Positions 42,378 through 53,605 of a stretch of 64,000 bases of DNA are shown piece by piece; the first letter of the stretch is position 1, and each line of letters begins with the position of its first letter. The notes beneath the pieces were generated by a model. That model saw only the letters and a program-made list of their open reading frames with translations. It did no database searches and was not told the origin of the DNA. Position numbers and translations under genes: made by a program. The stretch is from Escherichia phage JS10. The stretch is from sequence record EU863409. One strand, given 5' to 3'.

Positions 42378-42686
42378 TTAACGGTCACACCACCAACTAC
42401 TTACTTCAAAATCAGGCTCGCCGTCTTCCCAATACCAAGGGCCGATTGGATGCCAATCACCATGCTCATCTTCTTCAAATTCTTCGGATTCGAGCCCAAC
42501 GTATTGCCATTGGACTTCATAAGCAATGTCACCGATTACAACGGTGTTCTCGCCATATGGGTGAGCTACAACAAAGTCTATACCTTCTGCTTTAGCCAGC
42601 CAAACCATATATTCGTATAGTTTATATTCTAGGTCATCTTCGGTGCCATCACCTAGAAAAATGGTCTGTTCATTTAATTCAATCAT
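42378..42686 (-). CDS. hypothetical acidic protein
   Basis: 102-aa ORF. Confidence 0.45.
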   Translation of the reverse strand: MIELNEQTIFLGDGTEDDLEYKLYEYMVWLAKAEGIDFVVAHPYGENTVVIGDIAYEVQWQYVGLESEEFEEDEHGDWHPIGPWYWEDGEPDFEVSSWWCDR

Positions 42687-42946
42687 TTAAAATATGCTCG
42701 CAGTTGGTCAAAGCCGCCAATAGAAGTTCCATCAGGAGCAAATACCTGAGGCATAGTCAAACCTACTTGAGATTCACGACCAAGAGCAGCCAGGAGTTCA
42801 GCAATCTTCTCATCATCAAATACGCCTTTTTCCGGCATAACGTTAATGAATTCGTAAGGTTGTTTCTTAACATCAAGTAGACGTTTGGCATTATCACAGA
42901 AAACACAACGGTGAATATTTGAATCGTAACCATAAACTTTAAACAT
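42683..42946 (-). CDS. nrdC: thioredoxin (glutaredoxin-like)
   Basis: 87 aa; MFKVYGYDSNIH-CV-CDNAKRLL... near-identical to T4 NrdC. Confidence 0.9.
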   Translation of the reverse strand: MFKVYGYDSNIHRCVFCDNAKRLLDVKKQPYEFINVMPEKGVFDDEKIAELLAALGRESQVGLTMPQVFAPDGTSIGGFDQLRAYFK

Positions 42947-47481: not shown

Positions 47482-48462
47482 TTATTTCAGAAGGGTAACT
47501 TCGGCGATTTCGCTCCAGTCATTTTTATCGGTGGCAATGAAGTCCGCCAGATAAAGAGCTGTACGTAATGATACGTTACGAAGACGAGATACATTGGCCT
47601 TCATCCATGCTAGAGCTTGATAAGTCTCGGCATCAGTCAGACCTCGGTTTTGCATCATATCGGTGGACAGGATAACGTCTTCAACACGAACCATAATCTC
47701 TTCGTTCGAGTGAACTCCGAGGTCTAAGTAAACTGAACGAGATACTAAAGCCTGGAGGTGTGGAGCAAGTTTAGTGCCACGTTCTAATTCACGGTCAATA
47801 TCAACGTTGGTGATGAATACGATGGTGCCTTCATATTCGAATTCTTTATCGATATTTTTATCATCGAGATAAGAACTTGAAGTGCTCCAGCACACCTTAC
47901 GTTTCTCACCGGTATCCAATGCGGCTTTCAGAAGGTTCAGGATATCCATGTCAGAGAATACATCAACATCATCAATAAGAAGAACACTATTAGGGCCGCG
48001 GTTATTCCAAAGTTGCTCGTAAAGACCGATTCCACTAATCTTTCCGTTGATTGATTTATATTCGATAGTTTCATTTTCGTGGGCATTTTGTAATGCTTTA
48101 TCCAAAGAGTATGTTTTACCAATACCTGCGGCACCAGAGATGATAAGGGAACGAATTTTACCATCAATGATTCCGTTAGTCATCATGTTCATTACTTTAA
48201 AACGTTTGTTGATGCGATGTTTCATTTCTTCAGCAGATTCAGTAACCATTGCAGGAGCTTCAGCACCTTCCATTTCAACGTCACATTTGAACACCCATAC
48301 ACCACGTTCAACACCATCAATCTGTACAAATACCTTGCCATCACCGAGGTGAGCTTCAGATTCATGAATTTTATTAGGGAACCAGGTTTTACCTGAACTC
48401 ATGAACGTACCAGAGATTTCATTACCGCGATAGATACCTTTGTTGATTTTGATAGTTAACAT
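47482..48462 (-). CDS. AAA-type ATPase
   Basis: Walker A GAAGIGKT and Walker B VLLIDDVD; ATG at 48460-48462 with AAGGAG RBS (track start is an upstream GTG). Confidence 0.6.
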   Translation of the reverse strand: MLTIKINKGIYRGNEISGTFMSSGKTWFPNKIHESEAHLGDGKVFVQIDGVERGVWVFKCDVEMEGAEAPAMVTESAEEMKHRINKRFKVMNMMTNGIIDGKIRSLIISGAAGIGKTYSLDKALQNAHENETIEYKSINGKISGIGLYEQLWNNRGPNSVLLIDDVDVFSDMDILNLLKAALDTGEKRKVCWSTSSSYLDDKNIDKEFEYEGTIVFITNVDIDRELERGTKLAPHLQALVSRSVYLDLGVHSNEEIMVRVEDVILSTDMMQNRGLTDAETYQALAWMKANVSRLRNVSLRTALYLADFIATDKNDWSEIAEVTLLK

Positions 48463-48485
48463 TTTATTCTCCTTCACTCAGTAGA

Positions 48486-48526
48486 TTTGATAGGTCTATA
48501 ATAACATGTTTAAAGCAGATGTACAC
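48486..48526 (-). promoter_or_regulatory. early-promoter cassette, copy 1 of a duplicated pair
   Basis: gataggtctataataacatgtttaaagcagatgtacac; same 38-nt string recurs at 48797-48838. Confidence 0.5.
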
Positions 48527-48528
48527 AC

Positions 48529-48759
48529 TTATTTTGCAATAATTTCACAGAAGCCATCTTTATAGCGGGCCCATGTTTCACCATTTACTGTATAAAGAGC
48601 AGCTTTACGACCATTAGGCATAACAACTTGTTTACCTTTGTTTTTAGTTACAGCTTCAATAATTTCGTATTCTTCAGCACGATCAGCTTTAAAGGTATCT
48701 TCCAGAGCGATCAAGTTAGTAGTGTAAGAACCGTATTTGTAATTTTTGATAGCGTACAT
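48529..48759 (-). CDS. hypothetical protein
   Basis: 76-aa ORF flanked by two identical promoter cassettes. Confidence 0.5.
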   Translation of the reverse strand: MYAIKNYKYGSYTTNLIALEDTFKADRAEEYEIIEAVTKNKGKQVVMPNGRKAALYTVNGETWARYKDGFCEIIAK

Positions 48760-48796: not shown

Positions 48797-48838
48797 AGCT
48801 GATAGGTCTATAATAACATGTTTAAAGCAGATGTACAC
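48797..48838 (-). promoter_or_regulatory. early-promoter cassette, copy 2
   Basis: identical core to 48486-48526. Confidence 0.5.
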
Positions 48839-48858
48839 TACTTTTTTGCACTAAACCC

Positions 48859-48882
48859 AAAAAAGGCCCGAAGGCCTTTTAT
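48859..48882 (-). terminator. UUCG-loop terminator
   Basis: aaaaaaggcccgaaggcctttt. Confidence 0.55.
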
Positions 48883-49892
48883 CATTTATAATACGAGTTA
48901 TGGTTTTCTAGGTAAACCTGCTCAACGAACTTGTCCCAGAACTTCATGTCCACCTTCGCAGGCATACCATTCTTAGCTGCCCAGATGGCATTGGTTTCGA
49001 CTTCATCAACTATAGCTTCGAGCTCAGCCTGTACATCTTTAAAAGCATGTAGCCCTTGTTTGATTTCAAGGATAAATGGTGCTGTTCGTAAAGGATATTG
49101 AAGGTCGCCGGTCATATAGATTTCCTTCAACTGATATCCAGCACGATAAGCATGGCTCAGAGCTTTCCAATCAATGCCTTCATTAGCTTCGGCCTTACGA
49201 GCACGTTCACCATATTCAGCATCAAGTTTATTCAGAGATTGCTTAAGCTCGATTAATGACAAAGTAGTTTGGTACTTACGTCCGAGGACAGTATAGAACG
49301 TTTGAGGACCTGTTTTCTCATGGTTATGAAATACCCATTCACAGAACTCGTTTTCAGGAAGTCGATGTTTGATATCTTCTACCTTAGTGCGACGTTGCTT
49401 AGTAGAACCATCTTCTTGATAATCAACCCACTGTTCAGGAATCTGGTTAACGATAGCCAGTACACCACGCAGAGCAGCCAGACGAGAACCCTTAACACCA
49501 TATTTAGAAGCTTGCTTACGGACGTACCCTAAATAGGCTTTCATGTTAGTTGTATAGAAACGCGAACGGTTATCTTGGATAAATTTCCATACATCAGGTA
49601 AATCAGATTTAACCACCATTTCGGGTGGAGTGTGGAGCATATCCAGAGCAACGGTTTCGCCATCAGCAGCCAGTTTAAAGAAATATTTCAGGCTGTAAAG
49701 CTCATGGTCAACATCATCTTTAGTGTTTTTGGAAGCAGTGTTATTCGTGTTCAGGTTGGTATGGTTCATTGCCGTACCTAACAGAATATCACGCGGATGT
49801 GGAACAAAGATTTCTTTAAAATCGACATCAGATTCCGGAGTACTTGTTCCATAAAGATGGCTACCGAAGTAGCCTTTCATAACTGTTCTCAT
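48882..49892 (-). CDS. nucleotidyltransferase-fold protein (Pol-beta-like)
   Basis: GYFGSHLYGTSTPESDVDFKEIF (hG[GS]...D-x-D); start placed at ATG 49890-49892 forming ATGA overlap with upstream gene. Confidence 0.5.
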   Translation of the reverse strand: MRTVMKGYFGSHLYGTSTPESDVDFKEIFVPHPRDILLGTAMNHTNLNTNNTASKNTKDDVDHELYSLKYFFKLAADGETVALDMLHTPPEMVVKSDLPDVWKFIQDNRSRFYTTNMKAYLGYVRKQASKYGVKGSRLAALRGVLAIVNQIPEQWVDYQEDGSTKQRRTKVEDIKHRLPENEFCEWVFHNHEKTGPQTFYTVLGRKYQTTLSLIELKQSLNKLDAEYGERARKAEANEGIDWKALSHAYRAGYQLKEIYMTGDLQYPLRTAPFILEIKQGLHAFKDVQAELEAIVDEVETNAIWAAKNGMPAKVDMKFWDKFVEQVYLENHNSYYK

Positions 49893-50341
49893 TCTTTGTT
49901 CTCGAAGTGAATTACAGGACACATCTTAGATTTACGAGCTTTAATGTATTGGACGACGATATTTTCTTTAGTTTCTCGGCCTTCACGCTCAGCTTGAATA
50001 CGTTGCCATTCCTTTTCTTCTCTACGTGCATCATACCACGCGTGTAAATTCATCGCACCTAATGCCAAACCAATGGATAGAGCAATAATAAGAGCTATTG
50101 CAATCAACCCTAAAACAAACCCTAGACTCAACAGAACAGGAGTACTTAATACAAAGAAATGCTCTAATACACCAGCTCCTGCAACAGTTAATCCAAAAAG
50201 CGTACTACCTGCAACAACAGCACAAGCAAAACAAGCCCAAACCATTTTCCAGAAATAAGCACACAAAGAGTGTGGTCGAGAATGACGGTCATAAAAACGG
50301 TCGTGTAATTTAACGTGCCAAGAGTTTGAATTGATAATCAT
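49889..50341 (-). CDS. membrane protein
   Basis: 150 aa with several hydrophobic helices. Confidence 0.5.
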   Translation of the reverse strand: MIINSNSWHVKLHDRFYDRHSRPHSLCAYFWKMVWACFACAVVAGSTLFGLTVAGAGVLEHFFVLSTPVLLSLGFVLGLIAIALIIALSIGLALGAMNLHAWYDARREEKEWQRIQAEREGRETKENIVVQYIKARKSKMCPVIHFENKE

Positions 50342-50351
50342 AATATTTTCC

Positions 50352-50912
50352 TTAAGGGTTCATAGTTGGGATAACAGAGTTCAGATAAGAGACTAAAACT
50401 TTTAGCTCGTCTTTAGTAAATACCACTTCATTTTCACCGTCGTGTCTTTGGGTCAAGGATAGCAAATCACGACCCTGGTGTTGATACACGGATAATTCGG
50501 TATCATAATCCAGTTCTTCTTCATCACCTTCAAATGTTTCACTAGAACGAATCACCGCATCTTGACCTGGAACTTTCCATTCAACTTCAGGCTTGCATTC
50601 TTCCTGGAACAGTTTAAAAATACATTTAAAGAAATTACTAGAATTCCTAATGCTTAGACATTCAGTATCAGTTTCGATATTAAATCCGTCTTCATTTTTA
50701 TAAATTTGGGCCCATACATCGTCGTTAATATCAAACGATGCTCTATGGCGTCCATCAAGATACCCATCTTTATCCAAAACCTTTAAATCATAAAGTGGTT
50801 TAATATCTTGGATAGTTAGTACGATTTTATCGTCTTCTTGTGAAAGCACAATTGCATTATCAACTACTTCAGCGGTCAGTTCACCAAACAATTCAGTTGT
50901 TTCAATAATCAT
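50352..50912 (-). CDS. hypothetical acidic protein
   Basis: 186-aa ORF. Confidence 0.5.
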   Translation of the reverse strand: MIIETTELFGELTAEVVDNAIVLSQEDDKIVLTIQDIKPLYDLKVLDKDGYLDGRHRASFDINDDVWAQIYKNEDGFNIETDTECLSIRNSSNFFKCIFKLFQEECKPEVEWKVPGQDAVIRSSETFEGDEEELDYDTELSVYQHQGRDLLSLTQRHDGENEVVFTKDELKVLVSYLNSVIPTMNP

Positions 50913-51211: not shown

Positions 51212-51469
51212 TCATCTCATGCTCCTGTGCCAACAGTTACGTGGCTCACGTTTAAAAATTTCATCATGCATTGACTGACAACCTATACAATATATCACAC
51301 CTTTGATAGCTTGACGTCGTGCTTCAGGAATCTCTTCATCACAATCAAAACAATATTTAGCCGATTCACGTTCAACTGCTACTTGCTTACGGGCGTGTAC
51401 TATAGCGGCCTGAACGACCGCTTCCATTTCGAGCTGTTCAGCTCCGTCCTTAGCAAATCCAACAGCCAT
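51212..51469 (-). CDS. DksA/TraR-family C4 zinc-finger protein
   Basis: CFDCDEEIPEARR...CIGCQ (C-x2-C-x16-C-x2-C with the IPxxRR signature). Confidence 0.55.
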   Translation of the reverse strand: MAVGFAKDGAEQLEMEAVVQAAIVHARKQVAVERESAKYCFDCDEEIPEARRQAIKGVIYCIGCQSMHDEIFKREPRNCWHRSMR

Positions 51470-53032: not shown

Positions 53033-53605
53033 TCAACTCGTTATTTCTATCCAGTGCTTCCTGCACAATGACACGTAAGAATCGTTGCCACCTATAGAAA
53101 CTTGGGCTCCGTCCTTAATTGCGACACCATCTTGGACCCTAGCAGTCATAGTAGCTTTACGGCCGCAATGGCACACACCTTTGTACTCAACGAGTTTATC
53201 TGCCGTAGCGAGTAATTCAGCAGAACCAGGAAACAGTTTACCCTGAAAATCAGTTCTTAGCCCGTAACACATAACTGGAACATTATAATTGTCTACTATC
53301 TTTGCCAGTTGTTTTATCTGTGCAGGTTCTAAGAACTGTGCTTCATCCACAAACACACAGTGGATATCTTTTTGAGATTCAGCCCAACGATAGAACTCGT
53401 ATAGGTCCATATCCGGAGTCACTGCATTAGCCTCTTGACTAATCCCTATACGAGACGAAATGGTATGGCTTGATTCTCTATTGTCTATCGCAGGCTTTAA
53501 AAGGAGCACGCCCATACCACGTTCTTTGTAGTTATGAGCTGCCGTTAGCAATGAAGCGGTCTTACCTGAGTTCATTGCCGCATAATGAAAATAAAGTTGA
53601 GCCAT
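53033..53605 (-). CDS. tk: thymidine kinase
   Basis: 190 aa; Walker A NSGKT, C-terminal zinc-binding Cys pairs (CHCGRKA...CRKH). Confidence 0.85.
   Translation of the reverse strand: MAQLYFHYAAMNSGKTASLLTAAHNYKERGMGVLLLKPAIDNRESSHTISSRIGISQEANAVTPDMDLYEFYRWAESQKDIHCVFVDEAQFLEPAQIKQLAKIVDNYNVPVMCYGLRTDFQGKLFPGSAELLATADKLVEYKGVCHCGRKATMTARVQDGVAIKDGAQVSIGGNDSYVSLCRKHWIEITS

Follow-up and report, generated by a model that had tools for sequence, protein, structure and literature searches.

The classical tRNA repair of phage T4, in which Pnkp and Rnl1 act together, reseals a nick and cannot replace a nucleotide that has been lost, a gap that host nucleases such as RloC were proposed to turn to their advantage. 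The RlaP family (Pfam PF10127, 'RNA repair pathway DNA polymerase beta family') takes its name from its gene neighbourhood with RNA ligases and other RNA-repair enzymes. Two members from Pseudomonas, PfRlaP and PaRlaP, extend RNA, and not DNA or protein, by one or two NMPs (or dAMP) at its 3'-OH end, prefer Mn2+ and a nicked-tRNA mimic, and partly restore the aminoacylation of a tRNA that is short of one anticodon-loop nucleotide, before ligation; RlaP was proposed as an antidote to the nucleotide-removing ribotoxins RloC and PaOrf2 (Carruthers, Fatma and Huang, 10.64898/2025.12.29.696909). Excision of the wobble nucleotide by RloC was predicted to frustrate T4 tRNA repair (PMC3458546). In the PF10127 network, T4 NrdC.11 was put in cluster 5, where function is unknown (10.64898/2025.12.29.696909). 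The RlaP membership of T4 NrdC.11 is already published and the family assignment already stands in Pfam and RefSeq; the present analysis of the gene in Escherichia phage JS10 makes a modest addition, namely that NrdC.11 belongs to a long-form clade that has its own C-terminal region and that in bacteria is found in RNA-repair operons and often in tandem with short RlaP.

Identity and borders of nrdC.11 in phage JS10

The window analysed is a stretch of 64,000 nt from Escherichia phage JS10 (EU863409), in which positions 48882-49892 enclose one minus-strand ORF. By sequence comparison, this ORF is the catalogued T4-type phage gene nrdC.11 (with the note 'tk.-11'), which is known, named and annotated. 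The encoded protein is 99.7% identical to NrdC.11 of JS98 (YP_001595220.1) and 84% identical to that of T2, and over 2 kb the DNA matches phages UP19 and JS98 at 98% identity (98.1% against JS98; genus Dhakavirus, family Straboviridae). The RefSeq record of JS98 labels nrdC.11 'nucleotidyltransferase' and the gene upstream 'membrane protein', and PHROGs assigns the ORF to phrog_388 ('nucleotidyltransferase', E 1.9e-133). The gene and its borders comprise the following features.

48882-49892, minus strand: nrdC.11 coding sequence, 336 aa and a TAA stop (ATG at 49892-49890, TAA at 48884-48882)
49889-49892, minus strand: ATGA stop/start overlap with the upstream gene (the plus strand reads TCAT; RB32 is annotated with the same 4-base overlap)
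49889-50341, minus strand: upstream gene for a 150-aa membrane protein, phrog_944 (hydrophobic stretch at about aa 25-103, charged tail)
48861-48880, minus strand: intrinsic-terminator-like hairpin AAAAGGCCUUCGGGCCUUUUUUGG and U-run, one base past the nrdC.11 stop

The initial annotation had located the gene in the nrdC-tk region, coupled translationally through ATGA to an upstream membrane-protein gene and ending at a terminator, and all three statements agree with what we found: nrdC.11 lies in the interval bounded by nrdC (42683-42946, glutaredoxin fold) and by tk (53033-53605, PF00265), its ATG overlaps the TGA that ends the 150-aa ORF, and the hairpin and U-run occupy 48880 to 48861, with the 81 nt around the hairpin folding at -21.7 kcal/mol (z = -3.0 against shuffles). 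As the last gene, nrdC.11 closes its transcription unit. A GTG start at 49922 (346 aa) was rejected, given that it would reach 34 bases into the membrane gene, that homologs start at M1 and that the modelled strand 1 runs from residue 2. The terminator scan also picked up a hairpin with a perfect 6-bp stem and a UUCG loop (GGCUACUUCGGUAGCC; 49859-49874, minus strand) that nevertheless lies inside the coding sequence, within codons 7-12 of nrdC.11 (G-Y-F-G-S-H); it starts 18 nt past the coupled start codon and spans the codons of the catalytic G-S. Rfam returned 0 families at gathering score across the whole window.

The gene was also described as part of a variable region, which is true of the nrdC-tk region but not of nrdC.11 itself. 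With NrdC.11 as query, tblastn found a match in 1548 phage records, 1442 of which cover at least 80% of the protein; the hosts of the matched phages are Escherichia, Klebsiella, Aeromonas, Acinetobacter, Vibrio and others. On these sequence matches, nrdC.11 is a widely kept component of T4-type genomes despite the variability of its surroundings. Viable laboratory mutants of T4 can lack the nrdC.11-mobD.3 fragment (PMC9825161), which fits an accessory, host-dependent role. In public records (GenBank, UniRef), many orthologs are misnamed 'thioredoxin', and the labels 'glutaredoxin' and 'HNH homing endonuclease' occur in a few; such names seem to trace back to the designation nrdC.11 or to genes nearby.

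The gene of T4 and other Straboviridae is the same gene in the same position, between nrdC.10 and mobD.1. In JS10, unlike T4, nrdC.11 and nrdC.10 are separated by a 76-aa ORF and a promoter-like repeat in two copies, and T4 has mobD where JS10 has the upstream membrane gene; the RB32 annotation states that the membrane gene 'replaces mobD', that is, the homing endonuclease found at that position in T4. An identical 39-nt promoter-like core (TGTACA, 16-nt spacer, TATTAT, upstream TG) occurs twice on the minus strand (48488-48526 and 48800-48838) within extended repeats (48488-48553 and 48800-48865), one closely following the nrdC.11 terminator, the second immediately preceding nrdC.10. The repeats enclose the 76-aa ORF (48529-48759, minus strand; phrog_33156), which is unannotated in the 98%-identical JS98 RefSeq record. 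The arrangement has the look of a duplicated cassette of terminator and early promoter, with a small gene inserted between the copies. NrdC.10 (47482-48477, minus strand), whose gene adjoins nrdC.11 in T-even phages, is a P-loop ATPase with Walker A GAAGIGKT and Walker B LLIDDVD (Pfam AAA/STAND matches are sub-threshold). On the other side are a MobD.1 homolog (50352-50912, minus strand; Pfam T4_y05I_N and T4_y05I_C, 'putative transcription factor') and an 85-aa ORF (51212-51469, minus strand) with a DksA/TraR C4 zinc finger.

Catalytic residues and predicted structure

A profile search against 1.84 billion cluster representatives yielded 3840 families at E <= 1e-3. The best 150 of these 3840 are mostly full-length (about 310-350 aa), and from them we scored conservation in 146 homologs with 33-52% identity to NrdC.11. 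The residues and motifs that stand out are listed below.

49860-49865, minus strand: G10-S11, the G-S of hG[GS], which follows strand 1 and precedes helix 1 (G10 retained in 100% and S11 in 99% of the 146)
49821-49829, minus strand: D22-V23-D24, two predicted metal-binding carboxylates at the start of strand 2 (D22 and D24 in 99% each of the 146; invariant in T4-type orthologs)
49707-49709, minus strand: D62 on strand 4 (61-67), probably the third of the catalytic carboxylates (96% of the 146)
49641-49643, minus strand: D84, in the conserved helix G-E-T-x-A-x-D-M-L-H (98% of the 146)
49143-49172, minus strand: DWKALSHAYR signature, aa 241-250 (D241, K243, H247 and R250 near-invariant)

The initial annotation read a Pol-beta NTase signature in this ORF, and that reading was borne out: GSHLYGTSTPESDVDFKEIF corresponds to residues 10-29, with F9-G10-S11 separated by ten residues from D22-V23-D24, and the catalytic aspartates on whose conservation in orthologs the claim depended are retained at the frequencies given above. 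Because G10, S11, D22 and D24 are each kept in at least 99% of the 146 distant homologs, the motif is no chance match. The Pol-beta catalytic pattern of RlaP is complete in NrdC.11 (hG[GS], [DE]h[DE] and, on a strand further along, the third carboxylate). Conservation extends to D60 (93%), to K130, Y131, R137, R230, K243, H247, R250 and K278 (96-100%) and to the near-invariant P267, and the pattern DWKAx[SH]HAxR drew 156 confirmed relatives out of genome contigs.

An AF2 model built from 143 diverse sequences reached a mean pLDDT of 94.5 and a pTM of 0.83; an earlier model from a shallow 12-sequence alignment had pLDDT <50 for aa 1-68 and for most of 78-96. In the model, a minimal Pol-beta core is followed by helices, then by a small insert of beta strands and, at 213-335, by a helical bundle.

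49488-49892, minus strand: N-terminal Pol-beta/RlaP NTase core, about aa 1-135 (Pfam PF10127, hhalign, AF2)
49257-49445, minus strand: variable beta insert, about aa 150-212, with five strands (154-158, 164-168, 184-191, 195-202 and 205-208 in the AF2 model)
48885-49256, minus strand: aa 213-336, the C-terminal helical bundle peculiar to the long-form clade

The strands of the core are modelled at 2-9, 23-30, 44-48 and 61-67, which puts G-S after strand 1 and D22 and D24 where strand 2 begins, with D62 in strand 4; as modelled, D22, D24 and D62 have the canonical layout of three metal-binding carboxylates. The beta insert is the least conserved and most gapped segment of the family alignment. 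The best matches of the model among solved structures are HalB (score 9.9) and 3c18, an uncharacterised NTase-like protein (8.9), followed by the MNT/HEPN entry 4nqf_B (7.5), kanamycin NTase (7.4) and LinB (6.8). The initial annotation had suggested fold recognition against the CD-NTase, MNT/HEPN-partner and tRNA-NTase families; the second of these is represented by 4nqf_B, whereas the best matches are neither CD-NTases nor CCA-adding enzymes. Searches of PDB sequences with NrdC.11, the long-form profile and a short-RlaP profile, in a set without the PfRlaP structure, gave no meaningful match. In BFVD, the model matched giant-virus proteins in which the domain is fused (Yasminevirus, 1081 aa, 'Endonuclease V'; Terrestrivirus, 794 aa, 'exonuclease'), and also baculovirus HE65 proteins and gp218 of Bacillus phage G (519 aa).

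A long-form clade of the RlaP family

NrdC.11 matches PF10127 with 41.5 bits (cut-off 23, E 1.6e-10), a match that covers aa 8-134 only and profile positions 25-142 of 249, and its close homologs all carry a precomputed PF10127 match. In hhalign comparisons with 14 canonical short RlaP sequences, the alignment spans aa 1-130 only (probability 94.7, E 6e-8; the next-best alignment has a probability of 0.2) and sets D62 opposite the invariant Asp in the 'lDinGWD' motif of canonical RlaP; D84 is aligned with the invariant Glu of 'L-E-W-L-x-S-P'. For the C-terminal half, neither Pfam nor hhalign detected homology to canonical RlaP, and the family match is not full-length. Given that the alignment stops at about aa 130, NrdC.11 represents a separate long form: its profile matches place it in RlaP by the catalytic core, but in a distinct clade. 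The two forms share the homologous core, the G-S, D-x-D and D pattern and an overall layout in which an NTase domain is joined to a helical one, and differ in that NrdC.11 is about 80 aa longer, with the beta insert and an unrelated C-terminal half, and in that the phage gene is unlinked to an RNA ligase gene. Since the C-terminal half, where substrate would be bound, differs from that of canonical RlaP, the substrate may differ too. Considering sequence and model together, NrdC.11 is very probably an active NTase of the RlaP type.

Gene context in bacteria, archaea and phages

We examined 80 bacterial and archaeal loci that encode full-length homologs of 34-51% identity. Genes for Pnkp, Hen1, RtcB, RtcA or Ro60/TROVE lie within 6 kb in 16 of the 80. 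Directly downstream, 14 loci encode a canonical short RlaP that matches PF10127 over its full length (175-272 bits); either kind of neighbour is present in 27 loci, 11 of which have the short RlaP alone, and missing in the other 53, a number that speaks against the RNA-repair reading. Pfam confirmed the identity of the neighbours (PNKP_ligase 574 bits, Hen1_L 366, RtcB 443, RTC 268). In Asticcacaulis, the order is Hen1 - Pnkp - long RlaP - short RlaP, and in Nitrosospira it is Ro60 ... RtcB - RtcA - long RlaP - short RlaP - Hen1 - AAA ATPase. Because RNA-repair genes are rare in genomes, we judge their frequency near the clade to be far above chance, an estimate drawn from that rarity rather than from a statistic. 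The long form often stands beside canonical short RlaP in bacteria, which makes the two paralogs rather than interchangeable copies, and their pairing suggests that they cooperate there. In the tandem loci, the long gene (about 310-330 aa) and the short gene (about 255-290 aa) often overlap by a few bases (L060:2088-7802 and L041:1555-10277, and 12 further loci, L005, L008, L012, L019, L025, L033, L049, L050, L062, L069, L076 and L077), and some of these pairs lie within Hen1-Pnkp or RtcB-RtcA operons.

The phage context is less informative. JS98 encodes pseT (Pnkp) and rnlA (RNA ligase 1), but about 85 kb from nrdC.11, a distance that counts against a role in RNA repair. Among 78 IMG/VR loci, only two weak RNA-repair neighbours were found (one Rnl1-like, one kinase-like), and in the Vibrio and Shewanella T4-type phages examined the neighbours were unrelated and included no RNA-repair genes. 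The recurrent neighbour is the phrog_944 membrane gene, a homolog of which lies within 1.7 kb upstream of the NTase gene in 42 of the 78 viral loci and abuts it directly in about 14; this synteny reaches phages whose NTase is only 45-53% identical. The membrane gene is thus a syntenic neighbour of nrdC.11 and only a candidate functional partner. The annotation of Aeromonas phage 65 lists no NTase up to 2.5 kb away from its homolog of the membrane gene. A membrane partner was considered as a general feature of the clade and rejected, with an adjacent membrane-like gene in only 5 of the 80 cellular loci. The 150-aa protein showed no similarity to solved chains, and neither HalA chains nor PADLOC models matched it. 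Across the viral loci (IMG/VR L088-L165), phrog_944 diverges fast, with 25-35% identity where the NTase still has 50-85%, and one to three small ORFs are often inserted between the two genes.

Proposed function and alternatives

From the family membership of the core, the conserved G-S and aspartates, the fold and the association of the clade with RNA repair in bacteria, we infer the substrate, product and infection role of NrdC.11. By analogy with the assayed family members, there is about an even chance that it adds nucleotides to broken RNA 3' ends and so enables repair by the phage Pnkp and Rnl1. Like the two Pseudomonas RlaP enzymes, NrdC.11 would bind a divalent metal through D22, D24 and D62 and use NTPs; it would extend the 3'-OH of a broken RNA by one or a few nucleotides and could thereby replace, during infection, nucleotides excised by host anticodon nucleases of the RloC type. 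Pnkp and RNA ligase 1 of the phage, whose genes lie elsewhere in its genome, could then reseal a functional tRNA. Counter-defence, one of two roles that the initial annotation had put forward for such phage NTases, is plausible in this form, by analogy, as counter-defence through RNA repair.

The same chemistry might serve another end, such as rebuilding the trimmed 3' (CCA) end of tRNA or tailing host or phage transcripts. This we regard as rather unlikely, although the assayed RlaP labelled rRNA-, tRNA- and fragment-sized E. coli RNAs with all four NTPs (10.64898/2025.12.29.696909), the lack of linkage to pseT and rnlA in phage genomes is in keeping with it, and the presence of nrdC.11 in many T4-type phages across host genera suggests a general role. 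NrdC.11 itself does not belong to the tRNA CCA-adding enzymes or poly(A) polymerases, as it has neither a PolyA_pol head nor the tRNA-binding body and tail domains. Transfer to a protein or a small molecule, in the manner of MNT, which AMPylates a HEPN toxin, or of the kanamycin and lincosamide NTases, perhaps so as to inactivate a host toxin, is improbable: what speaks for it is the resemblance of fold, and the features of that group are missing. NrdC.11 scores 13.1 bits against the NCBIfam MntA model (NF047752; cut-off 60) and 13.8 against Pfam NTP_transf_2 (21), so that a family-level match is absent; its helical bundle lacks the HEPN motif Rx4-6H, the conserved residues there being K243, H247 and R250; and with no toxin-like partner gene and no HEPN partner bearing Rx4-6H, it has neither the antibiotic or toxin context of the group nor the make-up of an MNT antitoxin or HEPN-MNT module. 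Moreover, the assayed RlaP left E. coli proteins unlabelled (10.64898/2025.12.29.696909).

The structural match to HalB raises the question of a nucleotide signal, the second role envisaged in the initial annotation. HalB is reported to make oligo-dA, and Hailong is a host defence system, whereas nrdC.11 is a conserved phage gene. That NrdC.11 works in a Hailong-like or anti-Hailong manner, its product (for example, an oligodeoxynucleotide) regulating the membrane protein or acting as a decoy that keeps the HalA channel of the host shut, is highly improbable. HalB is the best solved structural match and a membrane gene is translationally coupled to nrdC.11, but HalB (PDB 9dbh, 9dbj) is only 14% identical with no sequence-profile link, has 217 aa and lacks the extra C-terminal region; T4 has no membrane gene at this position; and bacterial members of the clade partner RNA-repair genes. 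We give still less credence to the proposal that the phage membrane protein and NTase form a Hailong-like module of their own, or that the NTase makes oligodeoxynucleotide decoys by which host channels of the Hailong type are kept shut; either, if true, would constitute a new class of counter-defence. The idea of a nucleotide-signal synthase fared poorly in general: NrdC.11 has no sequence or fold match to CD-NTase/CBASS or cGAS-like synthases and no adjacent effector, no HalA-type partner was found, and the partners in bacteria are RNA-repair genes. PADLOC matched neither the NTase nor the membrane protein, and NCBIfam gave nothing significant for the NTase. Finally, a catalytically inactive NrdC.11 that keeps only the fold, with a structural or regulatory role, is scarcely credible. 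No phenotype is known and viable mutants can lack the T4 region (PMC9825161), but the catalytic carboxylates and G-S are invariant or nearly so across distant homologs, which is unexpected for a pseudo-enzyme.

The addition of nucleotides to RNA ends by NrdC.11 would have consequences beyond JS10. If NrdC.11 is an enzyme of this kind, T4-type phages would already carry the missing step of repair, and a gene present in about 1500 sequenced phages would gain a function.
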